From the NCBI GenBank assembly GCA_017499595.2, contig JAFIQS020000017.1:62001-112174 (forward strand): a stretch of DNA of 50,174 nt. Reading direction: 5' to 3'. The first letter of the stretch is position 1, and the number at the start of each line of letters is the position of its first letter. Source of the stretch: Psilocybe cubensis. Lineage: Eukaryota. The notes beneath the pieces are model-generated. The model ran no database searches. It was given only the letters and a program-made list of their open reading frames with translations, and was not told the origin of the DNA. Both the position numbers and the translations under genes were made by a program. Below, in pieces: positions 4,901 to 25,160 of the stretch.

Positions 4901-5413
4901 CCCGGCATCAATATATCGGTTCAATTTATTATAGAACTCCTCGCGCAGGGCCAATGGGCATCGAGGTAAATGGTAGGTATATCTTTTGGATTCATCTATT
5001 AGATGGATTTCGTGGTTTACTTCACGGAAAGGGGGTAATTCATTTCGGGTGCCTTGTACCACGTCAAGGTACTCGTCATGCCATTGTTGTCGTAGCCGTG
5101 GGATGTCAGTTGTTGAATATTGGTCTTCCTTGCCTTTTCCTTTAACATTATGTCTTTTTTCTGTAGCCATTCGTGCCATCCGCAATGGCTTTTGCAAGTC
5201 GTCACTAATTGTTTTTAGCGATGATTCCGACCAATCGTTGTATCTTAAACGAACAGGATTTGTGGGTTTTTTAATATGTATAATCTGAGGCAACGATATC
5301 TCTGATGGTTCGGGCTGTCGATATATTTCTTTGCCCGGTATGTCCCAACGCCCGCGCCTTGCCCAATGCTCTGCTGACATTGAGTCCATCATGTTATTCC
5401 ATTCGCGTGGCAT
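1916..5413 (-). CDS. pol: Pol: reverse transcriptase, RNase H, integrase, chromodomain
   Basis: RT YLDD; RNase H CDAS...ELETLA...TDH...ADCLSR; integrase HHCC (AHKCVGH...CKTCDAC) and D-D-E (GMDF, SDRD, GQTE); GPY motif; C-terminal chromodomain (EWFVDELIGHRW...FEVRW...TTWEP). Confidence 0.97.
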   Translation of the reverse strand: MPREWNNMMDSMSAEHWARRGRWDIPGKEIYRQPEPSEISLPQIIHIKKPTNPVRLRYNDWSESSLKTISDDLQKPLRMARMATEKRHNVKGKGKEDQYSTTDIPRLRQQWHDEYLDVVQGTRNELPPFREVNHEIHLIDESKRYTYHLPRCPLALREEFYNKLNRYIDAGWWEARSASQAAPLMCIPKKDGKLRTVVDARQRNDNTIKDVTPLPDQEIIREDVARARFRSKIDLADAYEQVRVRAEDVWKTAFSTISGTYVSNVVQQGDCNAPATFQRLMTCIFRDAIGRFLHVYLDDIFIFTDTIEDHEKALKFVFDKLRDNKLYLKWAKCELYADKVDCLGHVIDDAGIHPDADKLARIREWRIPRNYNDIQRFVGLVNYVGAFLPNVTAYTAPLMNMTQNGAPFYWRPLHQRCFDMIKRICCKTPIIRPINPKIDEPIWLICDASKTGVGAMYGQGSTWTMCRPAGFMSKKFTDAQQHYAVHELETLAILEALIKWEDKLVGQKIHIITDHKALEFFKTQVNLSHRQRRWMDYMSRFNFDITYVKGEYNKVADCLSRYYESDTPNDVYEVHEFVQADRRIDPEGEDLPKERYREITEHVIELRAMRAIEVRRSKRLLEKKEERELEAQLLNDDVTESPVKNEHKLEGDVALGDILHHHELTDRQPEKDLVDAFIQEIRDGYDQDKMFIEVKEQPTRFNRFSVDDGLIWYMAPGDIKVLAVPRVRSLVTRIIEEAHKCVGHFASAKTLGYVKRWYWWPHMAKDVELFCKTCDACQRSKVSNQKPMGKLHNLPVPTKPWDSIGMDFVGPFPESRGFNYVWVIICRMTSMIHLIPVHTSMTANQLSWIYMREIVRLHGLPSTIVSDRDSKFTSQWWRELHKLLGAQLLMSTSFHPQTDGQTERVNRSVGQILRTVIRPDQKDWVDKLDLTEFAINASVSDTTGYAPFELNGGYMPSMLKEIRSNEHVSRGIRAFAEAALRNLAEAHDAIIEARIIQTRQADRRRSDDADLPVGSLVYLSTKNLNMPKNRARKLCPKFIGPYKILNSKPGTSTYTLELPAALSMRRIHPTFHISLLKPYQASTDALFPNRAHPEPYDFGAPDDHEWFVDELIGHRWVNNKLEFEVRWSLGDTTWEPLANCKDLAALDRYLQLMGVKRPSLLPKRR

Positions 5414-5431
5414 ACGTGGATCAAATACCTA

Positions 5432-5977
5432 GTCCAATTCGACTGGTGCAGTAGGCCTGTCCCAAAACCTATGACGGTCTCGATGATTCTTTTCATTGAG
5501 TTCGGCCACCTGTTCTTGCTCATCTTCGTCGGTTATCAGATCCTCAACTTTTATTTTTGAAGACGTTGGCTGACAATAGTCTTCATTAGCGTGGTTATTT
5601 ACTATAATAGAATCATCCAGATAATCAATCCTCCAGACTCGTTGTCCAGACCCCAGATCTTCCACTAACATCTTCTTTTCATCATTATTACTATTATTAC
5701 TCGGGTCATAATTGGCACAGTGTGAGTTACCGTGTTCATTGTCCGCCTCGCAGCTTGGTTTTTCTGCAATTTGACTGTGGTATTTATGTGGGTTTGGCTT
5801 AGGTCGATCACACTTCTCGACCAATTGTACTGGCGTATCATATTCATCCAGTGTGACCATCAGTCTTGTATCCTCTGTGGGTAAGCTATTTATGTTTTGG
5901 TTGTGCTTTTCAACATCGTCAATCTCAACAATGTTTATTTTCCTTCTATCTGTCTTCTGATGATGCGCCGAGTGTAG
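5432..5977 (-). CDS. 182-codon in-frame acidic spacer between the gag-PR stop and pol
   Basis: Same frame as gag and pol, with no stop between TGA (5978-5980) and TAG (5429-5431). Includes track ORF 5429..5860. Confidence 0.6.
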
Positions 5978-8899
5978 TCAGGTATCGGCATGCTTCTCAG
6001 TTACACGTTGACGGCGTAACCGTCCATCAGTGTCCCTTGGTACACGAATGGCGGGTATGGATACTCCGTTAATGTGTACCACTGACTTATCGAAGTCCAG
6101 CATCACTTTATGCTTGCGCATAAACGGTGTCCCGATGATCATATCATACCGATCGATGTTTATAATGTCGAGGTACGTGGTTGTTGATAAGTTACCCACG
6201 TTAACTTGTGTATCCGTTCCATATTTAATGGATGACCGGCTTCCCGTCGTTCCCAGTTGTAGGATGTGCGGGTCAATTAGAGTATCGACCGATATGTCAG
6301 CAATCTGCGCAAAAGCTGGGGTTAATCCCGAGGTTGTACTCCCCGAGTCCCATAGCGTCCACGCATCCATCCCCGCTACGTTTACATATGTAACCAAACA
6401 CTCCTTATCCTCCGGCTTAAGAACTGGCCTCATGCGCTCCTTTTTTGAAGTGCGTAATCTGACCTTTCGCATCTTAATTTTGTCCTCATCACTTCTAGCT
6501 TGTGCTTCAGGTATCTCCGTCATTGCATGAGTACCATCATTGGTCATATCATGTATTTTTGGTTCCAGGGGTACCAATACGTCCACAAATTCGTTATCTG
6601 AGCTACTTTCGCATTCAACAAAGTTATTGGTGTTTGCAACATCTGGGCTCATCACGCTCATAGCGCGGCATTGGTCACTTTCAATACGTGATTCCGATTC
6701 GTACCAATCGCTGTCGACTACCTCGACTTCGGTGTATTGATCTTCGTCAGCAGGCCCAATATCCTCCGGATCCGCTTCGTCGTCCCCCATGTTGGACATT
6801 GTTTCATCAATGTCATCAGGAGCAACTGTGCGTGCTGCTCTTAATTGTACTCGATCTTTGCGTGGCTCAACGCATTCTTTAGCGAAGTGGCCAGTCTTAC
6901 CACAGTTATAACACTGAATTGTTCGGCCAACGTTATTTCCTTTCGGCTTGTTGGCACCGACTGGATTTGCAGTGGTTGCTTGCGTCTTATGTACAATCTT
7001 TACAGCATTGGACTCTTCAGGCTTGTTATTGCCTTTGTTAGGATCTATCAGTTGAGATCGCAATACCATAAGCTTTCCACGCGAACGTATCCTTAACGGT
7101 TTTGTATCAATATGTTGCGCTTTTAATGGATTAGTCGCCCCGCTTGCCTCGCGGCCGTGGCGTTGGTAATATGCATCAGTTTTCTGACATTCTTCATATA
7201 ACTTTGCTAACCCTACGAACTCATCGACTGAGTTTATCTCAGGCGATAGTCCGTCATTCCTAATCAAGTGAGATCGCATGGCTCGAGGAATCCCCGATAA
7301 GAACACTTCAAGTATAGAGTATTGATCTGGATACTCGTACATGTTCTGCGCATGCTCCAGAATTGTATCATAAAATGCCTGAACTCCTTTGTCAGGGTTA
7401 AACATCGCCGTACGGAATGCTTCGCGTGCATCTTGCATTGATGTTGGGTGCACAAAACGCTCGTACAGGGCAAGTATCACCTCTTCAAAAGTCCAGCTCC
7501 TTTTTTGACGGTTTATATTAGCAACGTGATGGTTATAGAAGAACTTGGCTTCTCCATCCAAGTATTCGGGTAGTATCATTCTACGTATCTGCTCGTTTTT
7601 TGGTCCCCCAAGCTGTCTGACTGCCATTTTTGTACACAGGTCCGACAGCCAGTTTTCTAAGTCAGAAAACTTAGGTGACCCCGAGTATCGTGTACTCTTG
7701 TCACTTTCCATCTTTGTGTTATACTTGAAACCTTCTGGGAACTCGATTCTGGTACCCAGTAATTCATGTATCAACCTAGATAATCGGTCCTGCATATCCG
7801 ATTTATGGGCCTCATTGGCCTCGGATATTCCTGGCTTAACGCGTGTGGCTACCGCCCTTGGCATAGAATAACCTCGTGGTGTACGCCTTGATTCACCATA
7901 ATTAGTAAATTGTGGCGGTATAGTGCCACTGCGTGCATATTTATCTTCACGCTCGATTGTCCTTTTCGAGCGCACTGATCCATATGGTGCGTCTAATAAA
8001 TTCAGACTTGCCATATCCTCTACATATTCCTGTTTTGGTAATGGCGACGTCGCTCGCACCGCTTCTCGTGGTCGATGACCATCGAATTCAATGCCTTGGT
8101 CATCAATGTTTGAGGTTCCGGATTCCCTTAAGGACGCGTTGCGCATGGTCTGGTAGGCCACGCGATCCTTCCAACTTACGGCTCTTGCCACTCTTGCGTC
8201 AGATCTGCGAGTGACGTTAGGGAACCCTGCAAACTGTGCTTGCTGGTCATTCATCGATAGGCTTGCCTCTTGCCCCCTATCTACAGCACTAATGTCTGCT
8301 ACCGACGGTAACTTGTACACCGCATTATCGGGTGGTCGGATGCGTGGTGATGATACTGGCATCTCCAGTATATTGGTCATTTCGGTTATTGGGCTTATGG
8401 GTATGCCCATCGAACTGATATAATGATATCGCGGTCTATCCGCATATTTCTCAGCCATACGGGACGCAGTCTTAACCACTACTGATATGTACTTATCAAT
8501 TCCCCATCCTTCGGTACTCGCATTTCCTATGCGTGTAATCTCCTGTTCCACTATGTCAATGGCCTTGTTACGGAGGGCGATCTGTCTATCCAGACGATCA
8601 ACTCCGTAAATCTCCCATATCGTCTCTAATCGAGCATCGATTTCTCTCTGCAGTCCTTCAATCGCCTCATCCTTGGATGTCTCTGGCGGTTGCGTGTCAT
8701 CTCCAACGGGGCCCTTATCGATTGGTTTCGATGTCCCCGGTTCTGGTGCGTCTACGTTGTCAACAGAGTCTCGAGTGACTCCTGTTTGTGTGACCTTTAC
8801 TTTGTCAAATCGCATTGTCTCTCGGTTAAACACCAAGATGTCATGGCTAGCAGTGTCTTTCGGGGTGTCGTTCCCTTGAGACGGTTGAGGGGATGCCAT
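5978..8899 (-). CDS. gag: Gag-protease polyprotein
   Basis: Retrotransposon capsid-like region, zinc knuckle CYNCGKTGHFAKEC, aspartic protease LWDSGS and IIGTPF. First ATG at 8899 (MASPQP); the track ORF begins at a GTG at 9025, inside the putative LTR. Confidence 0.95.
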   Translation of the reverse strand: MASPQPSQGNDTPKDTASHDILVFNRETMRFDKVKVTQTGVTRDSVDNVDAPEPGTSKPIDKGPVGDDTQPPETSKDEAIEGLQREIDARLETIWEIYGVDRLDRQIALRNKAIDIVEQEITRIGNASTEGWGIDKYISVVVKTASRMAEKYADRPRYHYISSMGIPISPITEMTNILEMPVSSPRIRPPDNAVYKLPSVADISAVDRGQEASLSMNDQQAQFAGFPNVTRRSDARVARAVSWKDRVAYQTMRNASLRESGTSNIDDQGIEFDGHRPREAVRATSPLPKQEYVEDMASLNLLDAPYGSVRSKRTIEREDKYARSGTIPPQFTNYGESRRTPRGYSMPRAVATRVKPGISEANEAHKSDMQDRLSRLIHELLGTRIEFPEGFKYNTKMESDKSTRYSGSPKFSDLENWLSDLCTKMAVRQLGGPKNEQIRRMILPEYLDGEAKFFYNHHVANINRQKRSWTFEEVILALYERFVHPTSMQDAREAFRTAMFNPDKGVQAFYDTILEHAQNMYEYPDQYSILEVFLSGIPRAMRSHLIRNDGLSPEINSVDEFVGLAKLYEECQKTDAYYQRHGREASGATNPLKAQHIDTKPLRIRSRGKLMVLRSQLIDPNKGNNKPEESNAVKIVHKTQATTANPVGANKPKGNNVGRTIQCYNCGKTGHFAKECVEPRKDRVQLRAARTVAPDDIDETMSNMGDDEADPEDIGPADEDQYTEVEVVDSDWYESESRIESDQCRAMSVMSPDVANTNNFVECESSSDNEFVDVLVPLEPKIHDMTNDGTHAMTEIPEAQARSDEDKIKMRKVRLRTSKKERMRPVLKPEDKECLVTYVNVAGMDAWTLWDSGSTTSGLTPAFAQIADISVDTLIDPHILQLGTTGSRSSIKYGTDTQVNVGNLSTTTYLDIINIDRYDMIIGTPFMRKHKVMLDFDKSVVHINGVSIPAIRVPRDTDGRLRRQRVTEKHADT

Positions 8900-8985
8900 T
8901 GTGAGGTGGCAGTGGTATAGGGGTAGCGAATAGATAGGAGGGGTGGATTGGTTAACCACCAATATAGATAGCTGGTTTAAAAAAG

Positions 8986-9177
8986 TGTAAAGCGCTGCTT
9001 TACGAGGAGAATTCTTACGTCGCACGAACTAAACCAGACCAACGTATATTGGGGTCTAGTAAGTACGAAACAAAGAACTAACTAGCTCCTATCTACGTTG
9101 CGTGAAATGTAACCACATCGGCGCTATCCGATGTGGTTTGAAATAAGAAATATCTATTCTGTCCGTCGCCCGTTACA
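8986..9177 (-). repeat. Putative 5' LTR (about 192 bp)
   Basis: Bounded by TGTAA...TTACA and followed on the element strand by CTTTTTT. The inner boundary is inferred because the second LTR is not in the window. Confidence 0.6.
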
Positions 9178-10892
9178 TTAACATACTTAGAGGCACAATA
9201 TAAAAAATCTGCTCTGATAGAGTTGTGGCATATAGAAATTAGATTACTTTATGTCTGCAAAACTACTTGCAGTTTTGAGGCTGTAATGAGTTGATAGCCA
9301 AATACTGGTTATGGATCAATATTACTACCATTATATATATCATAGATGTTATTGATTACATTATATATCATTGAACTAAAATGCCCTTTAAAACAGCATT
9401 CCATCGCAGTTAAAATCATGAGATTTGGTGAAGAAATGACCATTTTACACCTTTAACAATTTTTGGCCTTTGGATGGCTGGGAGCGGGAGCCACTCTCAG
9501 CCGCGTCTATTTTTGGCCGTGTCATTCAGCATTGACCATGTTTAGACGAGAGAGCATATCTACATGAATTCTGCACCGATTTTCATGATTCAAGATGATA
9601 AATGCTCGGTTTTTTAAAGTCAACATGTCTATTCTCATCTCAAATTCCAAACCATATTTCTCAGATCTGCAGCATGCAAGTTCTCTTTGTTATCATCATG
9701 TGATTTTTGATAAATCGCTTATTTCATGTACTATTTGCATTCAAGCCTTACTTTTAAGACTCAAATGTGTGTTATATGTGTGTTGGACTTCATTAGTTCT
9801 GAATTATAAGAAGGTAACTGTCTAGAATGAAGAAATATAGGCATGTATCAGGTTTTGTGACAAAACCTTGCGTGACGTGTGATTATCCCTGCCTGTCACG
9901 CTATCAGGGATTGTGCAACACCACTGTATGTTATCATTGTCAAACAGGAACAATTTACCAACCTGTGCGGGATTCGTGTCGGTTCCGATTGCCCTCCTGA
10001 ATTTTCCGAAGAGAAGAATAAGATTCTAAGCTAACTACTCATTGGTGTGCCTTCTTGGCAAACGACAGCTTCTAACCTTTTCCATGCTCTAGGCAAATAT
10101 TTTCTAGTACGTGCCCCTGTATATAAATATACCAGACTACTACTAGTGGTGTTGCACAATCCCTGATAGCGTGACAGGCAGGGATAATCACGCGTCACGC
10201 AAGGTTTTGTCACAAAACCTGATACATGCCTATATTTCTTCATTCTAGACAGTTACCTTCTTATAATTCAGAACTAATGAAGTCCAACACACATATAACA
10301 CACATTTGAGTCTTAAAAGTAAGGCTTGAATGCAAATAGTACATGAAATAAGCGATTTATCAAAAATCACATGATGATAACAAAGAGAACTTGCATGCTG
10401 CAGATCTGAGAAATATGGTTTGGAATTTGAGATGAGAATAGACATGTTGACTTTAAAAAACCGAGCATTTATCATCTTGAATCATGAAAATCGGTGCAGA
10501 ATTCATGTAGATATGCTCTCTCGTCTAAACATGGTCAATGCTGAATGACACGGCCAAAAATAGACGCGGCTGAGAGTGGCTCCCGCTCCCAGCCATCCAA
10601 AGGCCAAAAATTGTTAAAGGTGTAAAATGGTCATTTCTTCACCAAATCTCATGATTTTAACTGCGATGGAATGCTGTTTTAAAGGGCATTTTAGTTCAAT
10701 GATATATAATGTAATCAATAACATCTATGATATATATAATGGTAGTAATATTGATCCATAACCAGTATTTGGCTATCAACTCATTACAGCCTCAAAACTG
10801 CAAGTAGTTTTGCAGACATAAAGTAATCTAATTTCTATATGCCACAACTCTATCAGAGCAGATTTTTTATATTGTGCCTCTAAGTATGTTAA
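9178..10892. repeat. 748-bp near-perfect inverted repeat (arms 9178-9925 and 10145-10892, 219-bp spacer)
   Basis: The arms are reverse complements. Spot checks found one mismatch (9878 vs 10192). Identical 76-aa track ORFs appear on opposite strands. Confidence 0.97.
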
Positions 10893-11293
10893 AGTGCCTA
10901 TTTTACATGTATATCTCAGAAACCAGGAAGAATTTCAAAATTCGGCTCTGATAGGTCGATTCCAAATTCAATTCTAATGAACAAAACTCTACAGATCATA
11001 CCTATATGTGTATTTCTTGAGGAGATAATGCATAAATATCTTTGAGGTCTAAATTTGGCAGGCAAAACACCTTGATTAAGCATTTAAAACACATTGACAA
11101 CTTTTTACAGCTAATTAATACCATAGGTACAGAGATAAACTATCTTCTGCCTCTATTGACATAAAAAATGGCGAAACCTTGATTTGTGCAAAGCACAAAC
11201 TCAATGTCTCAAGAAATTGCCTGGTCACAGGTGTGACCTCGCCTGTCACTTGGTGTCACACTAACCGGGGATTGGACATCCCCACTACTAGTG
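10138..11293. mobile_element. Non-autonomous CACTA/CMC-like DNA transposon (about 1.15 kb); a second, Gypsy-interrupted inverted copy lies at 9178-9925
   Basis: Right end ...CCACTACTAGTG (reverse complement CACTAGTAGTGG) and left end TACTACTAGTGG, with imperfect TIRs extending about 40 bp (caatccc..tag.gtgaca). Subterminal GTGAC/GTCAC repeats; AT-rich, non-coding interior. No convincing TSD. Confidence 0.55.
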
Positions 11294-11734
11294 CATACGC
11301 GCGATTCAGTTGCAGGGATCGATGATGATTCAAGTCAAGTTTGAGCTGCGAAGTTTTCGTCGAGGCCTGTGATCCCAAACCGCGAGGGCCATGCCATGAA
11401 GTCTAGCGTAGGCTTCTAACTGTCGGTGTTTTGCATGATCCTATGATTCGTCAGTTCAATCATGACACGCTTAAGTGAAGGCGTAGTTTCCTAATGTCGG
11501 TAGATTGAACGAACCCTCTGGCTCGACTGCCTCAAACCAAATGACGGATATCTTTGGCAATATCAAAGCGCATGGTATTCTCGGACCTGAAATGAAAATC
11601 ACTCGCCACTCTTGGATGACCCACATCCAATTTTGCTACTCTAGTACCGCCCTTATGGATTCAAAATTTTACGTCCTCTCTTTATGGTTTGGCATCCAGG
11701 TACCTGCCAATAGGCTCCAGCCTAAACGATATTA

Positions 11735-12096
11735 CAGCTATTTTCATATCGATAGGCCCAACCTTAAAATATATTCATACAGTCGGCCTTGAATTTTTGC
11801 GTAACCTAGTTACATAAGGAATGCTCCGATGTTGAGTTTATATCAAACTATGGTACGATCTGGCAGCAAAGCATCGACATACCTTTCAAGTTTGAGAAGG
11901 GAATGGCTTTAGGGTTGCTGCTAATGTGGTGGTACTGATCTTAGTTCTCATAGCTCGACTTTTTGTAAATACTCATTGACGATTTTGCGAGTTTCCGTGA
12001 TTTTTCCGTCTTCAGATTTTATGTTCCGCTCGATAAAATTCGTTGTTCGTGTATGTGTAAATTTAGGGAATAGGTCTATCGATATGAAAATAGCTA
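11735..12096. mobile_element. Tc1/mariner-type MITE (about 360 bp)
   Basis: TIR cagctattttcatatcgataggcc / ggtctatcgatatgaaaatagcta (2 mismatches in 24), flanked by TA on both sides (11733-34, 12097-98). Confidence 0.65.
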
Positions 12097-13822
12097 TAAC
12101 CATTCAAATATTTAAGGAGTACGTTATGTACAATATGTATTGGCTGAGATCCAAATGAGCTTCGGGAGCTAGTCCAAAGCTAGCCTGAAAGGGGCGATGA
12201 TTGCTCAATTACTTTTATATAACTCGAAGACCACGCTCATTGCAAACAATTGTCCCGGAGATAGGAGAAGCGATATTTCAAGCATCGGAACCAATTACGC
12301 GTCGGTGTTTTCCACTGCTTGCCCTCAACATGGGAAAAAAATGCAGTAGCGTGGCCGTGCTCAGCGGCCGTGGCCGGCGTGTTGGCCATGACGGAGCCCA
12401 TGACGTTCACACGAACGAATTGAAAATCCACAACTTGGGTATCACTTTACTCATTTTTGCTTGCTAGGTAACGTTCTGTCGCGACAAACGTTTGGTCATA
12501 TGCATTCCTCGCTCGTATTTCCACCATAAGAATTGAATGAGCACGTTAGACCCAAATGTCATGACATACTCCGAAATGCACACTCGGTACATTTCCGACT
12601 CGCTGCCAAGGAGCATGCACGTCGCACGCGCAATCTTGCAATATCATTGCCAGCGCCGAAGACAAGATAGTAGCAGATCACGATATATAACACTAGGCAT
12701 TGACTTGGTTGCCCGTGCCAGCGCGCGCGCGAGGCGGTACTCTGAGCTCAGGGTGACCTACGTCCCTGTAACACTAACGTCCCTGTAACTCTAAGCACAA
12801 CGGACCATGTGGCAGCCTTGAGGATGAAGTCATACGTTACTTACGCAATCTTTGCTCACTTTACTGTTTCTCACTCCTCAAGAAACATATGTGTTTACAG
12901 ATATCTACTTACCAACGCAGCATCAAAATAGGGATATAACCTGTAAGAGGCGGTGCTTGATACATACTCAATGAACTTATCCCTCCTTACGGGCACCAGT
13001 GAGGGCTTTGCAAGAGGTTTGTGTTCTGTCCGCCATATTGTCATATAGTTTGTTACGTTTAATTGACAGGATACTGCTCCGAGAATACAGGAAACATAGA
13101 CCGACTCCTGCCGCAAATAAATTGATATGAACTCTGCATTCCCGGTCTTGCATGTTATTTCAAAACGCTAACGTTCTGGTGCGATACAGTTGTAAAACAT
13201 CGTTGGATGATGTTTTGCAAAGCTTCAGTTCACGCGTGGTGTTAGGGAAGGTCCTCCTAACTGAGTACTGTACAAGAACGACCAGTTAAAATAAACGCGA
13301 CATAATACGTTTGTGATGCCTAACACCGTTTAGGCTTAATCATCACTACAGAAAAGGTGTTCAATCTTTGAAGCTGTGATACTATGCTTGGCCTTAATTT
13401 CAGTATGATGATGTGTCATCGCCCAGAACAAGATTTCTCATCGAACAAATTGAACTAAAAGAACGTTTAAATTCCAAAAAGCGGTACGGTAAACATAAGA
13501 ATACGGATAAAATAACTACTATCTAACAAATCCCAACAAACTGAAGCAGATACAACGGGCGAAGCGGTCTTCAACACCCATCAGAGAAAAAACCAAGTAT
13601 ACAATATTATATCACCGACACCGAAACATTGAGCCAAAAAACTTCAGATTCCTATCACGCAACCCTATAACCTGAAAAAAGGTTTCAGAGCGCGAGATGA
13701 AGAAAAGCTGAGAGATGAACGTTTGATATAGTATAGGTAATCTTTGCTTGGGAGAAACCTCCTGCACTGTCGTTGAGCTCATGCCCAGAATGCCCAGGCC
13801 TCCGCTTCACCCAGTCACTCCT

Positions 13823-14610
13823 TCATGCCGAGTTACCAGGTGCTACATCTGGACCAGCGTTAGCACTGGCTTCCCTTTTCCATGGTCGATTCGGTGGAGT
13901 GTCGGCCCTTCTCCAAGGGTAGATAGGATCCTTCCGCCTCCAGTCACGGTCTCCGGGGGTGGGTACTGGAGACGCATCTCGCCTCCAATCGCGATCTCCA
14001 GGAGCGGGGGCAGGAGACGCATCTCGCCGCCAATCCTTGTCGCCGAGGGGAGCAGCATCAGCGACAGCTTCTCGTCTCCAGTCCTGGTTCGGTTGGCCTC
14101 GCTTCCATGATTGGTTTGGTGGGCCTGCAGCATCACGCCTCCAATCGGAGTTTGGCGGTCCTGCGCGTCTCCAATCACTGTTAGGAGGGCCTGCATGCTT
14201 CCAGTCCTGGTTAGGGGGTCCTGCGACGCTGTCGCGCTTCCAATCACGGTCTGGCGGCGTAGCCTCCGCAGTTAGAGCTGAGTCCTCAACGTCGCGCTGT
14301 ACGGTGTGCTCGATGCTATACACGGACTGATGGATGATATGGAAGCTCAGCATGTGAGGCGCAAATGATGGTGAGCCAGCTACGCACCGCAACATCCCTC
14401 TCCACACTAACGACGTGGCGAGCGTCGAGGTCTGCGCTGATCTAGATCGGCAAACGGCATATTAGAACGAGTCGTTGAGCGGGGGTGGTGTCGAAAACAG
14501 AGAGACGGGTGTTAAGAGGGAGTTCAAGAGAAAGGTATACGCACAGGAGATGCTAAAGTAGTTGTAAGGAGCGTGAGAGCAGCGAATACAGTGAGGCTGG
14601 TAAAATGCAT
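13823..14610 (-). CDS. Secreted Kex2-processed repeat protein (KEP) peptide precursor, about 207 aa; exons 14610-14545, 14441-14388, 14326-13823
   Basis: Signal peptide MHFTSLTVFAALTLLTTTLA-SP; two GTGCGT..AG phase-0 introns; TATA-like box near 14652-14660; 11 Trp-ended repeats, 10 followed by KR/RR. Confidence 0.88.
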
Positions 14611-17288
14611 GATAGTGGAACTGGGGGAAAAAGCTCAACTTCGGCACATGTTATTTATATACGTGCCTTTGCTCCTTCGTCAATAGAATTGTCTTCAGGG
14701 TGCACTGACCGCAACTCGGCGTGCCTAGTATCTGAGGAACCATATGCACCGTCGGCTTAGGCAAGATGCGCTACCCCATCTGGAGCATGCTTTCCGATCA
14801 ATCAGCGAACCTTAAGATGCCCTCATACGAACTGTCACCCAGTGGCTCTGTTGTCGTCCCGTCTATGGTAAACATGACCCGCTCCAAGCTCATTCTGAGC
14901 TCTAAGCGAAGATACCGTGCTTCGCTTTACCACTCGCTACCTAATGAATGCGTCATCTCTGGCAGCATGGTAGGAGGAGCAAGAAGGAGACGGCGATTGA
15001 GCCTGAGGGTAGGACTCAGCCGAGCCGAAAGTATGCAGCATGCCATAAAGAATTAACGATATCCGCGTTCCGAGCCCCGTGGTTCAGCACAAGTCCATCG
15101 GGTGGAAAAACACCGGCCAAAAAGGCATGATGTGGGAAAATGCGGGGAACAGGTCTACATCGAGGCAATGAGGGTCCGGATGCCTGTTTCACTTAGTCGA
15201 ATTGACTGCATCTCAGTTTTCTGCAAATCACAGATGATCAGCGGCGCGTGGGGGATCCTGTGCAGTATCCATGAGTAGGGACCTATAGTCTTTGTAAATG
15301 TACCACTCTAAAGTCTATTGCTTTAGTGAGATCGGAAGGCTATACCCCGTATAGCCATCGCGTTCAGGTCCCCGCAGCGTGCTTGACCGGCTAGTCGAAG
15401 AATTACAAAGTGAGTCGCGTCAGAACCTCTCTTAACCCTCCCACTACTCTTCTACCGCCATCTACTGAAATAAACTGTATAAACTGAAAATTTCATGACA
15501 TCGAGTAGTCGGCGATAACGGAATTAGTGAAATACAGAGTGACACGCTATGCGTATGTTCAAATTTCTTCGTCAATTTATGGTCTAGTGCCAGAGAACCA
15601 GCGCAATTCTTGAGAAAACATGAACACGTTGACAGTAAGCCGAGTCACTGTGTGTATGCCGCATAGGTGATATATCCAAACGAAGTAGTAGACTGCAGTT
15701 AATGGTAAATTACCTAGTGTATCCTATACGACATTGATCATAATCGGAAGTTAGTCACACAATGAAGTACCCTGATGCGGATCTAGTATCTTCGGGGTAC
15801 TTTACTCTGGCAGCGCTCCAGCAGAAGTGAAAGGTGCTCATGTCATCGTTAGACTACAACCGTATAAAATATTTCCCTATAGTTAAATTATGGTCTAAAG
15901 ATCAGTTGACTGTTCAATGCTTAAATTCTTAAACAGATGCACACTCTTTTCCATCTTGAGTTTCTGTACATGTCGCAACTCTGATCATAATACTTGTTTG
16001 GAATGGTTGCCAAAAACAATACTCAATATTTTTTCCTGAATTGCTTTGAATTTTCTTGTGCAGTGACCTCAAAGCCCTTTCAAACAAAATAAACCTGTAT
16101 TCTGAGAATTTATATCTGACCATGCTGTTCTGATGAAATATATCCCGAAGTTGTTGTGCAAGTTGGAAAGACTTGACTCGAATTGAAGGTGACCACGTTA
16201 TCTTATCTTATCTCCCCGCCCTTACAGCCACAACATTAGGTAATCCCATTAATTTAAACCCCGCCGTCTTGACGTTTCGTTCCGCTTCGTGGTTTCTTCC
16301 TATTCACAATCCAATCCTAACTTTATAAGTTGACTCTGTCTGTGTTTCTCCCCTTTTATAAGAACTCAATGAGACCAGATGTTTCTCATGGAAATATCGT
16401 GGCTGAATCCTCGTTTGGACTGCTTCTGCCGTTACGAACATGGTTGTGCGCTGGCGTATAACGAAACGACTACCCCCCCTCTATCATTGGTCATTCTGCC
16501 GTTTGTTTTTCCGTGTTCCTCAAATACGTTCAGTCTAAATCGATAATTCAGGTTCTATGACGTGAGCAACAACATAAATGTCGTTTTATTTCAATGTTGA
16601 GCGAATAACGACGTCTAGGTTCATACCTTCAGCTGTATCTATCTGAGCGTGGACGGAGTTGATCGATATCAAGTGGCCTAGTACTCTCTCAACCATACCA
16701 GAACAAGTGTACTTTTGTGCAGTTTAACTTGACGCTATATGGCTATGCGTGCTTCGCAATTCGCCAATTGGACGATGTCATAGGTTCAACCCTTCAAACA
16801 TCATCACTGTCGCAACATATACGAAGTCGAATGTATGTTGCACAGGACATTCCTGATGTTCCGGACACCACTTGACGTCAACTGCCACCAATCCTTGAAT
16901 ACCAGCCGGCCCGTCGCATAAAGAGTAGCAGGTTGTTGGTTGCTGTTCTCTGATGCTTCAAAACCTTCAAAGCCTCGGTTGGCAATCTTAACTCATTCCG
17001 TGGAGTCCAGGGTAGACATCTGACGCCCCGTGCTATTGGTATGTACTTCTATTCTCAACATATAGTTCTCTCTATATGTCACTCACCGTCCTAAAGTTAT
17101 CTCACCTTCAATCTGATTTACGGCTCGTACAAGTCCATGTGATCAATACATCTCCACTGTTCAACACTTACGATACACCATCGAAGGACACGTCTACGGG
17201 CCGCTCAAGGGATCTACCATGACATTCCAATAGATGCATTGTTCAGCAAATAAAAGCATTGCACAATGTCTCGAATCACCAAGTCTTA

Positions 17289-18485
17289 ATGTTTCAATAC
17301 CTCGTACCATTTTTGCTTCTAGCAGTGCCTACTCTTGCGCTTCCCGCTCCAGGCGCATGTACCACTCTCCCTGAAAACATCGATTTCACGACAAACCCCG
17401 CCCTCCCAAATCCCTTCGCGTTTCTCGATGGTACACCCGTCGTTACACCTGAACAGTGGGCCTGCCGCCGCGAGGAGATTGGGCAATTATTCCAGCGTTT
17501 CGAACTTGGTACTCTCCCACCTAGGCCAGAACAAGTTTTTGGATCTTTCTCCAACGGTGTCCTCACCGTCAACGCAACCGAGGCCGGGAAATCCATTTCC
17601 TTCACTGTCCCTATCACCCCACCCAAGAACCTGACCCTGGCGGGTAAAGGTCCTTTCCCCGCTGTCATCGCCGTCGGTGGAGCCAGCGTCCCCATTCCAT
17701 CAGACGTTGCTCTGATCAACTTCAACAATAACGATATCGCTCTCCAGAACGATCAGAGCAGCCGAGGAGTAGGCAAATTCTTCACCCTTTACGGCTCAAA
17801 CCACTCTGCGGGTGCCCTCATCGCATGGACATGGGGTATCGGACGCATCATCGACGTGTTGGAGACCACACCGGGCCACAACATTGACGTGAAACGGCTT
17901 GGAGTTACTGGATGCAGTCGTAACGGCAAAGGCGCATACGTCGCTGGTGCCTTCGAGGAGCGAATCGCGCTCACGCTGGTTCAGGAGTCTGGGTCTGGCG
18001 GCGCAGGGTGCTGGCGCATCTCCGACGACATGCTCAACAAACAGAACATCACCACGCAGACTGCATCCGAGATTGTCCAGGAGAACGTTTGGTTCTCTCC
18101 TAACTTCAATCCATTCGTGAATGAGGTCACGGTCCTCCCATTTGACCACCACATGCTCGCTGGCCTCGTCGCTCCCCGCGGGCTGCTAGTGATCGACAAC
18201 ACCGGCATCGACTGGCTCGGTCCCGAGTCGGTGTGGGGATGCCAGACAACTGGACACCTCATCTACGAAGCACTCGGGATCCCTAGCTCAATGGGAATCA
18301 CTCAGGAGGGTAACCACGACCACTGTGCACTTCCCGCAGACGAAGCACCCGACGTTTCCGCATTCATCAGCCGATTCCTCAAGGGCCAGAATGTGAATAC
18401 CACTGTTTTCGACACTGATGGGCCGAACAATGTTGGCTTTGTTCCATCCACCTACATCAATTGGAATGTTCCCAAACTTCATTGA
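17289..18485 (+). CDS. Secreted glucuronoyl esterase (4-O-methyl-glucuronoyl methylesterase, CE15), catalytic domain only, no CBM1
   Basis: Signal peptide MFQYLVPFLLLAVPTLA; CE15 nucleophile motif GCSRNGK, QESG-GG--CWR, PFDHH and H-HC motifs; single uninterrupted ORF. Confidence 0.95.
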   Translation: MFQYLVPFLLLAVPTLALPAPGACTTLPENIDFTTNPALPNPFAFLDGTPVVTPEQWACRREEIGQLFQRFELGTLPPRPEQVFGSFSNGVLTVNATEAGKSISFTVPITPPKNLTLAGKGPFPAVIAVGGASVPIPSDVALINFNNNDIALQNDQSSRGVGKFFTLYGSNHSAGALIAWTWGIGRIIDVLETTPGHNIDVKRLGVTGCSRNGKGAYVAGAFEERIALTLVQESGSGGAGCWRISDDMLNKQNITTQTASEIVQENVWFSPNFNPFVNEVTVLPFDHHMLAGLVAPRGLLVIDNTGIDWLGPESVWGCQTTGHLIYEALGIPSSMGITQEGNHDHCALPADEAPDVSAFISRFLKGQNVNTTVFDTDGPNNVGFVPSTYINWNVPKLH

Positions 18486-18909
18486 CGCGTACGCATTTGT
18501 AACTAGGCTTGTGTAGCAGAGTCGTGCATGTTTGATTTACTTTCTTCAAGAAAAAAATCTGAACGCATTTGGTTCGTATGTTGGTTGCTCCAATGCTTGA
18601 CATGAGGCCCGACATAATCATATTGTATTGACCATTAGATCCCTAAGTGGGCCTGTGTCATGGCCTCAGAAATTTTTATCATTTTTCGAAGCTTCTAATA
18701 TGTTCTCTTTTGAAAATGGTAATCAAGGCACTACCCATCAACAGTGCCAACACCGCATGCGTCAGTGTAAACAAACTGAGTGCCATTACTAAACTCACTA
18801 TATAATATAGCTCTTCAACGGGGCATTTTATTCCCAATCACTCCGTCCCTCCTCAAAAATTATTTTATCTTACTCTGCGGGCTAACCCATATTGTTACTT
18901 GTTTCTATC

Positions 18910-20061
18910 ATGAATAGATTTGGTACGCCAACTCGAAGGCACTGCTCATCGCAGATGAGACCTAAAAGTCCACACTGGGATAGCCCAAACTCTCCGACAA
19001 AGCGTCCCGCTGCCTTTTACGGCAACAGCGTCGACTACAGAGGCAATCCTTCATCTAGCAGGCTTCCATCGCAGGTTGATCTTCTCCTCTCAACGCCATC
19101 TCGAAGGTCCCAATATCCAAATAATACTGCTGTGTTCTCTGAGGCATCCCTGAACATTGAAGAATGTCGTGAAGAAGTAGGAAAAATGATGAACTTGATG
19201 TCCACCGCTCATACACGCCTTGAAAATCTTCCGTATGGCCAACCACAAAGCTGGATTCAGTACTGGAAAAATGAACGTGCAGCTGCTCTTGTCGCTATTC
19301 GTCGGATGCTTGGAAATATGAACAAATCAAACAATATGACCCCCGCTGAGTACTTTCTCCAGGAGTTCTGGCGCGATCCAGAGAACGGTGTCCCACTTGT
19401 CCTGCCCACTGTCGCATACACTGATGCATGCAACAAAGGCATCGGGTTCTTCATGCCAGCGCCAGGCGGCCACCAGCAGGCTCTAGGGTTGGCCTGGTCG
19501 TGGAAGACAGGAAAGAACTACATAATTCCGCGCATATTAGACGGGTCAGTATATGCCTCATGGGGAGAGTTGATTGCAGTGGAGATCACACTTGAAACTC
19601 TGCTGACTCTTCATCAGTACGAATCCATCCAATCCCGGAGATACCCTCCCGATCCCCCTTGTTTCGTCATTCTTTCAGATAACCAGGATGTAGTCACCTC
19701 CCTCTCAAGCCAAAACAGGTGGGTTGATCGACGAGCCGTCTTTTTGGAGGAGCTCGATTCTGTTGTGGGCAGGATTGGGAAAACATGCTTAGACCATAAT
19801 GTGCAATTGCACGTTCGTTGGATTCGCGGAAGCAACAACTACGCCGACCCATGGTCGCGCATGGAGTTCTCCAAAGAAAACGCTGACTCTATGGAGGAGT
19901 GGCACGAGAAGATAAAGATGAAACTGTTTGATCACGGAATTACTGTGCCAGCCGTCCCGTATCATCACCGTCTGCTTCTCGAACCTTGCTGGTTCAAACA
20001 CCGTACCCAATCCTTCCGTGGGTCTCCCCGGAAGAGCACCCGGTCCTTCCATCCGTATTAA
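18910..20061 (+). CDS. Stand-alone RNase H-fold protein resembling the DIRS/Ngaro retrotransposon RNase H
   Basis: Motifs YTDACNKGIG, WGELIAV, LSDNQDVV, WIRGSNNYADPWSR (four catalytic acidic residues). TATA-like tatataa near 18799. No RT motif in the ORF. Confidence 0.75.
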   Translation: MNRFGTPTRRHCSSQMRPKSPHWDSPNSPTKRPAAFYGNSVDYRGNPSSSRLPSQVDLLLSTPSRRSQYPNNTAVFSEASLNIEECREEVGKMMNLMSTAHTRLENLPYGQPQSWIQYWKNERAAALVAIRRMLGNMNKSNNMTPAEYFLQEFWRDPENGVPLVLPTVAYTDACNKGIGFFMPAPGGHQQALGLAWSWKTGKNYIIPRILDGSVYASWGELIAVEITLETLLTLHQYESIQSRRYPPDPPCFVILSDNQDVVTSLSSQNRWVDRRAVFLEELDSVVGRIGKTCLDHNVQLHVRWIRGSNNYADPWSRMEFSKENADSMEEWHEKIKMKLFDHGITVPAVPYHHRLLLEPCWFKHRTQSFRGSPRKSTRSFHPY

Positions 20062-20206
20062 ATCTGGCCGCAAATAATGCTTAGAATGATGTTATTACAC
20101 GCTCGTTATATTGTCTATATATTCTTATATTGTTACAGGTTAGGTTAAGTTAGGTTTTAGGTGGGTTAACCGCCGATAAGTAAGTTTGCGATTCCATAGC
20201 CGTGAG

Positions 20207-23200
20207 TACGGTTGCCGCCTCAAACATGGTCTAACTTTCTTGCAGATCGTGGAATCTGAGTCCGTTTTTGTTAATCGGGGTCCCTTCCTCGTGGCATAAC
20301 TCTCCGTTACCTCTGTGACACCTTTTGTAGCTTTACAATCTCCGACACTGTACATGTTCTGCCGACCGCCGAGGCTATGAACAATCTAGTGCCATTACCG
20401 AAGTGTTACTGGCTGCTGGCACATGAGCCTGAACAAAATTGAAGTTGAAGTTAGAGTACCAGAATTATTCTATCAGTTTAATATGTAGAGCTGAGTTTGT
20501 ATTATATACATTATGGGAGGTCAGACGCAGAGGTGATTCTGCTCATCAGAAGCGTGGGAAGACGCAGAATCGCCTCTGAATCGTTCATCGGCAAAAGTGA
20601 CCAAGTCCCCAAATGCCTTAGTAAGGCATTTGGGGACGCCCAAAGGCCCCAAGGCGCAAATGGCCTTTTATATCGACTAAGTAGAGACTCGCAATTTTGA
20701 AAGGCTACAAATCCTTCACTAGAATGAATGTTTTATCAAAATCTAAATTTAATGAAATCATTTCGGTAAAATTTGGGAGACCCAAAAACATTTGGACAAC
20801 ATTTGAGTTGCATTTGAGAGACCCAAAAAAGATTTGAGGTTCACACAATGCTACAGCTTGTTTATTCTTATTTATAGCAGCCATTTCCCAATAATCACAC
20901 ACTTTGGAAATACTAACACAATAAAATTTGATTGACTACAATGGAGGGTACATAGAAACGAGTACAGATGACGATAATGGTCAACCAGACCCTGGGAGAC
21001 TCCGTGTGACCAGGTCACAATAACTCGTGTGATTTGAGATCTGGATCTGGATGTGTCACAGTGAGTCATGGTAAGCAAAATGCAAAATGTATGCGCATTT
21101 GATGCGCATATACTCACAATTAATTCAACATGCATGTCCGTAAGACTGTAATCTATACTTGATGGAAAGATGTATCAAAGTCGAAGGAGGAGCAAAGACA
21201 TAAAAGAAATTGTCAGTTGGGTTGCACTGGCAGTTGGGGATAATTGATTTACCTTGTGAGTTTAACTTTCAGGCCTATGTCATGTGCATGGGACACCAGA
21301 AGATTGTGTTGTCAGAACCAGGAGACATGAGAGTGAGGAAAGAAAGGAATTCGGGGCATGTCTCGAGTTATTATACACATAACATTGATTCAATCTCCGA
21401 CTTAATTTGTAATCAGACCTGGGAGGCTCTTTGTCGATGGCTAGACAGAAACGGTGGACTTTGCCTTAAATTGACATTGTGCGATGATACTGTGAATAAA
21501 TTTTTACATTGAAAAATCATTTTTTGCGCACTCTAAGGCCGGTAATCATTTGAGTGCATGTCAAGTTGAACTCAAGCTTTTCTTTTTCTTTTTATTTATG
21601 ATCAATCATTCACTCTAAGTTCTATGGCAAACCAATAATTGAGAAATAAGTGTAAGTATGTGAAATATTTAGTAATAACTTTTGGGCTCTACAAATGTTT
21701 TTGGAGCCTCCAAATGCCTTCTAAATGTTTTGGGTGCCTCCAAATTTTACCCAAATGTTTTGTGTGACATAATTATGTCACATGAATCATTGGCCTTCCT
21801 TAAAAGGCAGCAAAGGCATTTTGGGACTTGGTCACTTTTGCCGATGTTGAAGCGCCTCCGGAGCCGCTTCAATGATTCTGCATCTATGAATACAACAAGT
21901 TACAATGTCCAATTGAAAGAAGCCACTGGGCTGTTAGTATGGCTGTGTTTCTGCCATATTGGATAACAAGTCTGCTTTTCAGTTGCAGAGGTTACAAGTG
22001 AATTGACAAAATTAGTAGTCCTGGCTCATGCTGCTAAGGCGTAATCAACACTCACCTCCGTTTGTCAAGACTCAAAATTAAATATTCCGTGTCCGAGTCA
22101 AAGGTTTCCTCTTTTCCATCGTTCAACAATATGTCAAGGTTTCAATGTTTTTTTTCTTTTTGTTTCGTTGCCTCAGGGACGAGAGCAGCAGCTTCTGAGT
22201 ATTCCTCTTCCGATTTTTCATCTTCACAATGGTCTATATCTTCCTCAACTTCTCATGAGATGGCCCAAATCAAGAGTGGTGCAAACACTGTTATACACGC
22301 ATAGACTCTCGAGGTCCTTGATTGACATGTTGAATCACTAAAAAGTTGCTTTTTCCAATTGTCTATTTTCCTGTTGCTTCCATGTCAAAAGCTTGCAAAC
22401 CAGAAATTTAATGGTTATGAAAGAACATTCAGTTTGTTACTTATAACTGCCTGTCTACAGTGGTCAACATACGTGCGTTCTTGAGGGGAGAACATGCAAC
22501 CATTATGGTTCGAACCTGACGGATAGAAATGGAAACGAACCCCCGAGTTTATCAGAACACGAGGCAGAAACAAGCAAAAACTTAAATTGAAGGGTGATCG
22601 GTATTACATGTTGCTTGTATCCTATGTCCAATTTCTGAGTCACATTCACACTTTCTGGTAAAGCACCTTTTTATAATGTGAAAAATGACATTTCTCATAG
22701 TCCAATTTATGAGCAGTATATAATACAACCTAATTAACCTACTTGTAAGCTGTGTAGAATAAGGGCCAAATTTTACAGCATAGGAATACGCTGGAAGACG
22801 GCGTTGTACACCACCGACTTAAACAAACACACAAAATGCTCCATCTAAACGGGGACATGGCGGCATGCCTGTCTCAAGGTTGGAGGGTAGCCGACGGCAA
22901 GGGAGGTGTAATACGTGGTGACTTGTGGTGTTGTACAGCAAGATAAGAAATTTTACTCACCTGCTTTGGCCTGTATGTCAACCTGTTAGTGAACGAGGAG
23001 GTGGGGTAAGGACATTTCGGAGAAGCACCTCGAGGCTCGCTCTGGGCTTGCTCACAGGATAGAGGTTGGAATTTGAAACTCCGACTGCCCCCGAGCCGGC
23101 CAACCACAGTCACACACAAGAGGGTCTGAACAGCAGTTCTACCTGACGTGACAAACAGGAAAGTAACGCAGTGCCAGGACCCCCATCCACCGCTTCTTGA

Positions 23201-23248
23201 TAGCGGAACAGTTGCCTTATGTAGACCATGTTTGAGGCGGCAACCGTA
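20207..23248. mobile_element. Non-autonomous TIR DNA transposon with TAC...GTA ends and 6-bp TSD (IS3EU-like)
   Basis: Perfect 27-bp TIR tacggttgccgcctcaaacatggtcta (20207-20233 / 23222-23248). Direct repeat CGTGAG at 20201-20206 and 23249-23254. No intact transposase ORF. Confidence 0.85.
20586..21846. mobile_element. Nested non-autonomous TIR element (CA...TG ends, possible 2-bp TSD, subterminal repeats; CMC-like)
   Basis: 34-bp TIR catcggcaaaagtgaccaagtccc(c/a)aaatgcctt with 1 mismatch; TT on both flanks; mirrored CAAATG-type subterminal repeat blocks at about 20765-20840 and 21680-21760. Confidence 0.7.
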
Positions 23249-23829
23249 CGTGAGTCCAAATGGTTCTTCATCTCCAATGCCATCGGCCCGAGAAGCTCTT
23301 AAACTCTGGGTGGCCGTTGAGCAGCGTCATGGCGTCAAAAGCAACAGGAACGTTTACGTGATTTTCGCGATGCCATCTTGATCAATGTGCTCTTGTGAAC
23401 GAATATCACTCATTTCAGTATCTAGTTCAGCTGAAGGAAATATCGATCAATAATTAGACTACGATAGGTAATTTGAACGTAACGGACCTTCATATGACCA
23501 GTCCACGCTGTCATTGACAAGATAGAAGCACTGGATGGAAGCTCAAGAGTAAATGGGCGCCTACTCCACGGAAACTTGTAATGGTGATTTAAATACCGTT
23601 TTCGCTACAGCATATATATCCCTTTACAATTCTTCTTCCATTGACACACCCGACATGTATTAAGTTAAACTTCTCACCTTCTATATTAACATCCGATTAC
23701 TCATTGTGAGTGAAAAAATCGATAAGACTATTGAGCCCACACTGATGAAAGCGAAAGCTGTCTGTCTTATTTAATGTGAGATACAGGTTTTTCATCATCC
23801 AAAAGCACCCCACGATCTATTTGTTCTCA

Positions 23830-24995
23830 ATGGATACTGGTTCCCCCCGCTCCCGTCCTCACGAACAAGAATGCGAAAGGGAACTTGTTCGATTATTGGT
23901 AGAACACGGCGCTACAGATCTTGAACGCTTGATTATCCTGCAAGACAAGGTAAGTCCTCCCGCAGCTACTCATTCACCCATCAACGAGAACTTATGGTAC
24001 ATCTGCAGGGATGGAATGATACCACTACAGAACTTCATTTTTGCAAACAGCGCCACACTTCTGATACCTGCTCGCCCAAGCTCAACCTCATCTGGTTTAA
24101 GAGAATGAAAATTCTGTTTCGAGAGATAGATAGTAATGTTGATGTTGTTTCCTTTACCCATGGTTTGGTCTTCCTCGACTTGGGGTATCTATGTTTCGAT
24201 CGCATTTTAGCAGGAATACATGGACTAACTGATCCTTTACCCAGGTGCTCTCCTGGTGGATTCTCCTCGTAAATTTTAGAGAACAATCCCAACGCCATTG
24301 GTACAGGTGTATCCCTACCTGTAGAAGAGGGCGGACATGAGTTTTTACTGGAAAGTGACTACCTCACGCGGTTCCACTTGCTCTCAGCCAACCTCACCTA
24401 CTTCGAGCTTGGTCCACACTGCAACGACACAGTTGAGCTCCATCGTCTGCCGATGTACATGTCGGTACCAGTTTTCGATCTTGTACTGTTGGACGGACAC
24501 CAACTACGCACCCAGACGACCTCCGTCCCGTGGGATCGTGACAGGCTTCTGATCTCCCAGGTGATAATAGGGTTAAAGTCAGTCAGACAAGGTGGTACGC
24601 TCGTCGTTAAACTTCCTCTACCGCATCGCCATATTGCTGCACGGATCATCTTCCTCCTCCGCATCTTATCAAACGAGCTGGTAGGATGGAAGCCACTTTG
24701 CATGCATGCCAACCGCGGTCAGTTCTACGCTGTTGCAAAAGGCGTTGGCGAAGGAAAGTCGGGTGGAAATTTACAGAATTATATTGAAAAACTAGGCTTA
24801 TTATGGTCCGCGTTGACATTTGGAGGGGAGGATAACGTGGGGAGAGCCATGGTTCCAGAGGATTTAGACTTTATTATATCGATGAACGATCTCAGGGACC
24901 ATCACTTGGAGTGGTTGTTGGAATACGGCAAACCATTCTGGAAAGTTCAGGCAAATGCTATGGAAAGGTTCTACTTGAAGAAAGGTATATATTAG
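23830..24995 (+). pseudogene. FtsJ/RrmJ-like SAM-dependent methyltransferase with an in-frame premature stop; exons 23830-23949, 24009-24184, 24245-24995
   Basis: The spliced motif is FLDLG|CSPGGFSS*ILENNP...GVSLP..GGH, followed by FDLVLLDG and GGTLVVKL. TAA at 24270-24272, with the same frame staying open to 24995. Confidence 0.75.
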
Positions 24996-25160
24996 CATAT
25001 GTATACCTTATTCAACCATTTGCACCTGAAGGGCTGTGGCAGTGATATTGTAAAAATTAAAATGCGCGAATAATAGCTTGGAGTTCAGGTGATATATTGG
25101 GATGTCGCGTCGCCACATGGTGAAATGGGGAACAACAGGAGGCAGGCCGAGCTTATTAGC

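Follow-up and report, generated by a model that had tools for sequence, protein, structure and literature searches.

A spliced and transcribed gene of Psilocybe cubensis encodes a further tryptophan-terminated KEX2-processed repeat protein

The minus strand of the window, by which we mean the whole 50,174-nt stretch of Psilocybe cubensis DNA analyzed here, carries a gene (ATG at 14610, stop codon at 13825-13823) which is transcribed and spliced and whose 207-aa, Cys-free product is a further agaricomycete Trp-terminated KEX2-processed repeat protein (KEP), a class that has already been described. Secretion of this precursor and its processing by Kex2, Kex1, and Ste13 to linear peptides are very probable, judging from its layout and its relatives. 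The most likely reading of their function, to which we assign a probability of about one half, is that the peptides would be linear diffusible signals within the fungus, acting via a receptor for which the C-terminal Trp is the recognized feature. The accessible portions of two papers (PMC9769878, PMC6339444) ask why basidiomycetes retain alpha-factor-like precursors despite having lipopeptide pheromones. The locus gives no answer to this question; it contributes verified splicing and a measure of selection on the cores between two gene copies, and its genome also encodes two other Trp-ended precursors.

Gene structure

The repeat frame, rich in Trp followed by KR or RR, opens 284 nt past the ATG at 14610, where the leader is hydrophobic, and removal of the introns brings the signal peptide of exon 1 into frame with the repeats. 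Exon 1 (14545 to 14610, on the minus strand like all other features of the gene) is covered by spliced contigs and encodes a predicted signal peptide of residues 1 to 20, with hydropathy up to 2.3, followed by S-P; signal peptidase would cleave after T-L-A. Intron 1 (14442 to 14544; 103 nt, GTGCGT..TAG) and intron 2 (14327 to 14387; 61 nt, GTGCGT..CAG) are both in phase 0 and enclose exon 2 (14388 to 14441), a 54-nt micro-exon of the pro-region that encodes residues 23 to 40. Exon 3 (13823 to 14326) encodes the end of the pro-region, 11 Trp-ended units, a tail, and the stop; like exon 2, it is supported by spliced contigs and by translation.

The segments 14544-14442 and 14387-14327, and exactly these, are absent from the contigs of two of four sequencing runs (X1 and X2, from one study), which we guess to be RNA because of the skipped introns themselves, RNA not being stated in the records. 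Outside the skipped segments, both of which are GT..AG on the minus strand, the X1 and X2 contigs are identical to the window, while both introns are retained in the other two runs (X3 and X4, of a kind not on record). An earlier note on this DNA had proposed the two introns, and they are skipped just as it modeled them; of the many splice models that the sequence alone would allow, the one-intron and the alternative two-intron ones are ruled out by the same contigs. The 3' untranslated region, whose ends are undefined, covers at least 13500 to 13822, as the X1 contig runs to 13692 and the X2 contig past 13500. A putative TATA-like element (14654 to 14661), named from its sequence, is situated 51 nt upstream of the ATG. 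The X1 contig starts at 14672, upstream of this element, and the contigs cannot mark the start of transcription.

Repeat units and predicted processing

All 11 Trp residues of the precursor close a unit, followed by KR or RR in ten cases and by KH in one, and each of the ten dibasic sites in exon 3 is preceded by Trp (7 of 10 by D-W). The resulting number of W-[KR]-R sites, ten, compares with a maximum of four in 100,000 residue shuffles and with two or fewer in every other frame among the 285 open frames of at least 60 aa in the window.

As read from the translation, unit 1 (14234 to 14293; ...TA-EA-TPPDRDW plus KR) follows a single Arg, at which monobasic cleavage would take place. Units 2 and 3 (14165 to 14233; ..AGPPNQDW and AGPPNSDW) are separated by the KH junction at 14195-14200 and end in RR. 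They are followed by unit 4 (14135 to 14164; AGPPNSDW plus RR), unit 5 (14099 to 14134; DA-AGPPNQSW plus KR), unit 6 (14072 to 14098; GQPNQDW plus RR), unit 7 (14024 to 14071; EA-VA-DA-AP-LGDKDW plus RR), unit 8 (13979 to 14023; DA-SP-AP-AP-GDRDW plus RR), unit 9 (13934 to 13978; DA-SP-VP-TP-GDRDW plus RR), unit 10 (13907 to 13933; KDPIYPW plus RR), and unit 11 (13874 to 13906; ADTPPNRPW plus KR). The C-terminal tail (13826 to 13873) consists of EA-SA-NA-GP, which is the fourth long spacer, and a remainder of eight residues without Trp.

The boundaries of units 7 to 9 and of the tail are also supported by a dipeptide test. Four leading X-Ala/X-Pro dipeptides are present in 4 of the 10 fragments that follow a dibasic site, one dipeptide in another, and none in the remaining five. 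The four-dipeptide register in 4 of 10 fragments was reached by 0 of 100,000 within-fragment shuffles, and it still has P = 3e-5 once one duplicated unit is left out.

These results support the KEP, or alpha-factor-like, reading put forward in the earlier note, through the splicing, the W-[KR]-R sites, and the spacer register, and the four spacers and eight mature peptides it quoted are all found in the spliced translation. The layout of repeats ending in Trp plus KR or RR stands as well, with 11 units in place of 9. Its description of the repeats as dibasic throughout holds for ten units, the first following a single Arg and one junction being KH, and the exact dipeptide register that it ascribed to the spacers applies to four of them, beyond chance, whereas 5 of 10 fragments lack a Ste13 spacer.

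In the processing that we propose, the precursor would enter the endoplasmic reticulum, Golgi Kex2 would cut after KR or RR, Kex1 would trim the basic residues so that Trp becomes the C terminus, and the X-Ala/X-Pro spacers would be stripped by a dipeptidyl aminopeptidase of the Ste13 type, to yield about ten linear, unmodified 5- to 9-mers. Carried out in silico, the three steps give AGPPNSDW, AGPPNQSW, GQPNQDW, LGDKDW, GDRDW (twice), KDPIYPW, and ADTPPNRPW, besides a 21-mer if KH is left uncut, the first unit after the single Arg, and the Trp-free tail. On the enzyme side, Pfam matches in the genome comprise three proprotein-convertase P-domain loci, one DPPIV_N locus, and several S10 carboxypeptidase loci; these are matches at the family level, and the S10 loci are not assigned to Kex1 orthology.

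Nine distinct cores are encoded overall, AGPPNSDW and GDRDW twice each. Six of the units make up one series, with the pattern P-N-x-(D/S/P)-W and mainly (A)GPPN-x-(D/S)-W-like, and four make up another, D-(R/K)-D-W or GD-(R/K)-DW-like, with KDPIYPW as an outlier. The predicted cores are polar, Cys-free, mostly acidic or neutral, and Pro-rich at the N terminus, which should make them resistant to aminopeptidases. Trimming back to G-P-P, as in Coprinopsis, is plausible here by analogy, since both DDDPEGPPAPSW and GPPAPSW, the latter in the supernatant, were detected in that fungus according to the accessible text of PMC9769878.

Second gene copy

A second copy of the gene is found on another contig (C8) of the same genome. 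C8 is colinear with the window from ~9.9 kb to the window's end, the identity being 95-99.7% if transposon indels are set aside, and both gene versions are present in run X4; the C8 copy is probably the other haplotype, that is, allelic. It may also have originated by recent duplication, while an independent paralog is ruled out by the colinearity over 40 kb. The haplotype-like copies differ by up to 6% per kb at window 12100-28100 and show no differing aligned site at window 29001-50174, the last 21 kb.

Between the two copies, residues 61 to 191 show 13 synonymous changes and a single nonsynonymous one, which lies in a spacer (pS 0.14, pN 0.003; binomial P ~7e-8 against neutrality); residues 1 to 60, by comparison, hold three nonsynonymous and no synonymous changes, which fall in the pro-region. 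Since the changes in the repeats are 13 synonymous ones and one in a spacer, the cores look constrained, in a test that compares two copies only and whose synonymous count may be inflated by conversion among repeats. The KH junction is a decayed dibasic junction and occurs in both copies.

Genomic surroundings

The next gene upstream of the KEP gene is an intronless CE15 glucuronoyl esterase without CBM1 (window 17223-18485, plus strand), whose protein is 100% identical to one of Psilocybe cubensis and whose next named matches are from agarics. The flanks further hold transposons, an arginyl-tRNA synthetase (window 36743-38983, plus strand), and a cytochrome P450 (~39470-41340, minus strand). 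On C8, some 12 kb downstream of the second gene copy, they also hold an NTPase-type gene with ankyrin repeats (L004:1727-4363), which is NLR-like in combining NPHP3_N with these repeats. Among the flanking frames compared with Pfam (14, 95, and 47 frames, a comparison that misses small exons), we found neither a tailoring enzyme cluster nor a receptor.

This bears on the possibility that the product is a cross-linked, dikaritin-like RiPP whose Trp would be cyclized in trans by UstYa or a P450. The invariant aromatic residue would suit such a product, as would the 21 UstYa matches in the genome and the P450, 26 kb off. None of these 21 matches, however, lies on the gene's contig (C16), where a dikaritin cluster would have one within ~15 genes of the precursor, and the nearest one, at ~3.0 Mb on C8, is ~2.9 Mb from the copy at 0.136 Mb. 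Together with the lack of tailoring genes among the flanking frames, the Ste13 spacers, which mark linear products, and the detection of related Trp-ended peptides in linear form in the available portion of PMC9769878, this makes cross-linking quite unlikely.

That the gene specifies a true alpha-factor-type mating pheromone is highly improbable. The layout is canonical for an alpha-factor, and one core starts with G-Q-P, as does the C-terminal portion of certain alpha-pheromones of ascomycetes. The STE3 matches, however, form clusters on contigs C10, C3, and C2, away from the precursor locus, and a genome search run without a positive control gave no STE2 match, so that a receptor of the alpha-factor type is not evident. 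The cores are identical in both copies, which leaves no room for mating specificity, and the mating pheromones of basidiomycetes are a-type lipopeptides, as stated in the accessible parts of PMC9769878 and PMC6339444. On C10, an STE3 receptor cluster with adjacent UstYa genes is present twice (0.59-0.66 and 1.07-1.14 Mb), perhaps as both mating-type haplotypes assembled in line.

Several mobile or repeated segments were seen in the window. A Ty3/Gypsy chromodomain retrotransposon (1916-9028, minus strand), with gag, protease, reverse transcriptase, RNase H, integrase, and chromo domains in one frame with two interrupting stops, is absent from the aligned C8 stretch. Two multi-copy elements are likewise missing there, one with ~28 bp terminal inverted repeats (20204-23249) and, nested in it at 20586-21846, a 1.26-kb inverted-repeat element. 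Other multi-copy, nonautonomous elements are found at 10141-11291 (with inverted termini), 11730-12100, and 45120-45830. A 391-aa open frame without a Pfam match (18886-20061, plus strand) has a C-terminal half that looks like an RNase H-like domain of a retroelement. Two related segments at 25400-29050, with 80-86% identity and relatives on C2 and C9, may be a small tandem gene family without a Pfam match.

Relatives of the precursor

Two further Trp-ended KEPs were found in the genome. One, on contig C11 (1.4717-1.4725 Mb; L042:882-1673), has 13 Trp units with long EA/EP spacers and the cores QRGRNPSW (six times) and GGKNPAW (three times), which resemble those of Lentinula GAW01176.1 (EP-QRGNAPDW). 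The other, on contig C1 (3.2358-3.2364 Mb; L044:1005-1176+), has 12 units ending in RGNVDW and no Ste13 spacers and resembles the GNSDW proteins P0004, P0132, and P0138. In the models of both genes, built from sequence only, a phase-0 intron follows the signal peptide after two or three codons, and in the C11 model a second intron follows a 45-nt micro-exon, like the 54-nt one of the precursor gene. The match of these intron positions suggests that the three genes are one family. The first of the two patterns used on the genome gave 72 matches, versus 25 in the control; five of the loci were translated and proved to be the KEPs on C1 and C11, a short tandem repeat on C13, and two chance matches, the rest being judged by eye. 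Since the second pattern mostly matched a dispersed 36-bp repeat among the 100 of 124 matches listed, the number of Trp-ended KEP genes is at least three.

Beyond this genome, a word-seeded search with exon 3, which is ill suited to a low-complexity repeat, gave no hit among 217 candidates at E <= 0.01. A full HMMER search at E <= 0.001 returned nine matches, namely, four W-[KR]-R repeat proteins, one protein with two sites, and four unrelated repeats. The profile search at E <= 1 returned 13, of which two were its inputs and the 11 new ones all carry at least three W-[KR]-R sites, a partly circular outcome. The layout was thus found in Trametes elegans, Tricholomella constricta, Macrolepiota fuliginosa, and Pluteus cervinus in proteins of unnamed source, and, as a weak match, in the ascomycete Zasmidium cellare. 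In proteins P0139 and P0141, one of which is from Z. cellare, the repeats end in Trp, the sites are K-K/K-R, and the spacers EA/DA, so the Trp-ended layout extends beyond the basidiomycetes. The HMMER and profile matches included no ortholog with GPPN-x-DW cores, and one protein with G-D-R-D-W-K-R was the only core-level relative found in other genera. As to the conservation of W-[KR]R, which the earlier note had proposed to follow in homologs, it is the layout that recurs in relatives, while an ortholog was not found. The available part of Umemura 2020 (PMC7329392) lists 19 KEPs of Psilocybe cyanescens, including, in Table S2, PPQ80393.1 as a stand-alone KEP without DUF3328. On the basis of accession numbers, this protein may be the syntenic ortholog, being six numbers from the P. 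cyanescens relative of the gene's neighbor.

The spread of the layout weighs against a further reading, in which the product is surface or matrix material (Rep1-like), or a Trp store linked to indole-alkaloid metabolism, without a signaling role. Psilocybe cubensis is known for its Trp-derived psilocybin, which may be counted in favor of a store, and all 11 Trp residues are located at unit ends. However, the layout is shared by proteins of Trametes, Tricholomella, Macrolepiota, Pluteus, Pleurotus, Lentinula, and Coprinopsis, a secreted store is implausible, the cores are polar and Pro-rich, and selection appears to span whole cores and not just Trp. We therefore regard this reading as unlikely.

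Possible functions

In the literature covered, which took in few of the subscription journals, we found neither a published function for Trp-ended KEP peptides nor a paper on this gene. In the reading that we prefer, the peptides would be low-abundance diffusible signals between hyphae, serving density sensing, self-sensing, or development, with the free Trp C terminus read by a membrane receptor. Such a ligand role fits better than bulk material because of the invariant end, the variable body, and the low expression of the Trp-KEPs of Pleurotus, three of which have a mean FPKM of ~1-11 in the portion of Le Marquer 2019 that could be accessed (PMC6339444). Two observations count against it: no receptor gene is near the locus, and six kep knockouts of Coprinopsis, two of them of Trp-ended KEPs (490115 and 405832), had no growth or fruiting phenotype in axenic culture, as far as the accessible text of PMC9769878 reports. 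Redundancy among Trp-KEP genes could explain silent single knockouts, and redundancy is indicated here by the two further Trp-ended precursors that share the intron position.

The same silent knockouts are also what would be expected under the main rival, which accepts the processing as proposed but has the peptides deter, or mimic the signals of, bacteria, fungi, nematodes, or insects of the dung and litter niche. The authors of Vogt 2022 themselves prefer roles in biotic interaction for KEPs in the available portion of their paper (PMC9769878). The nine distinct cores in a single precursor would widen the range of targets, and the near absence of core-level relatives in other genera, GDRDW in one protein excepted, agrees with such a role. 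On the other hand, the short and polar cores, few of them basic, do not resemble membrane-active defense peptides, and they are invariant between the two copies and not diversifying. They also lack a Gly before the dibasic site and therefore would not be amidated, whereas the Trp-amide neuropeptides of animals carry amidation. Synthetic Trp-ended relatives, moreover, did not inhibit five bacterial strains in the accessible account of PMC9769878. Action on other organisms is thus possible, but clearly less likely than signaling within the fungus.

A bolder form of the signal reading is rather doubtful: Trp-ended KEPs would be one ancient family of nonsexual mushroom hormones and ligands of the orphan, nonmating, Ste3-like self-sensing receptors, and the precursor gene would send several messages at once. 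The shared introns, a phase-0 intron past the signal peptide in three genes and a second one after a micro-exon in two, can be cited for an ancient family. As far as the sources could be accessed, Schizophyllum has orphan Ste3-like receptors for which a phenotype of self-avoidance is described (PMC8161036), the alpha-pheromone of Fusarium has nonsexual autocrine roles, and Le Marquer et al. speculate on hormone roles for Ste13-type KEPs (PMC6339444). If true, mushrooms would have their first nonsexual peptide hormones, through which mycelial growth and fruiting might be influenced.

Comparison with known systems

With ascomycete prepro-alpha-factor (S. cerevisiae MFalpha and the Sordariomycete alpha-pheromones), the precursor shares the pre-pro-repeat layout and the Kex2/Kex1/Ste13 signals; it differs in its shorter, varied, Cys-free cores, in the absence of an MF_alpha Pfam match among the frames of the locus, and in its basidiomycete host. 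The Atlas score of the alpha-pheromones, 0.76, is under the 0.9 mark and is a weak lead at the feature level, as the best scores, 0.77 and 0.78, are leads only. Unlike the a-type pheromones of basidiomycetes, the precursor has a predicted signal peptide and no Cys, hence no CaaX box, and the STE3 loci are elsewhere. Dikaritin precursors (ustiloxin, phomopsin) have in common with it a signal peptide and Kex2-separated repeats, but not a Tyr-x-Ile core or a UstYa cluster at the locus.

The closest systems are published agaricomycete KEPs, which are Trp-ended, Ste13-spaced, and heterogeneous in the accessible parts of PMC9769878 and PMC6339444, so the unusualness that the earlier note implied was overstated. 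In the portions available, Vogt 2022 (PMC9769878) describes many basidiomycete KEPs as having Ste13 motifs and cores that end in tryptophan, and the detection of Trp-ended peptides in four species, among them QYKAPSW and QMRPPSW in Pichia and -AADW peptides in fruiting bodies of Lentinula and Pleurotus, and Le Marquer 2019 (PMC6339444) describes Ste13-type basidiomycete KEPs with a conserved XSDW motif. Two units of the precursor end in N-S-D-W, in agreement with this motif, whereas the others end in Q-D-W, R-D-W, K-D-W, S-W, or P-W. As far as their reports are accessible, the Pleurotus ostreatus KEPs 171464, 1091723, and 1070124 and Lentinula edodes KEP 2599 / GAW01176.1 share Ste13 spacers and a KR or RR directly after W or DW; their core sequences are others and mostly near-identical repeats, compared with nine distinct cores here. 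A mixed core library nevertheless has precedents in Pleurotus 171464, which, like the precursor, holds several different Trp-ended cores in one protein, and in Coprinopsis 447393. In the same partly available sources, the Coprinopsis cinerea KEP 447393 / 377821 has mostly single Arg at its junctions, while the precursor has KR or RR at 10 of 11 and longer, exact Ste13 spacers. The two share a signal peptide ending in L-A and followed by S-P and heterogeneous, Pro-rich units with a Trp end; GPPAPSW of Coprinopsis and GPPNQSW of the precursor agree at five of seven positions, and a late Coprinopsis unit reads, by eye, E-T-V-A-D-A-A where the precursor reads E-A-V-A-D-A-A.
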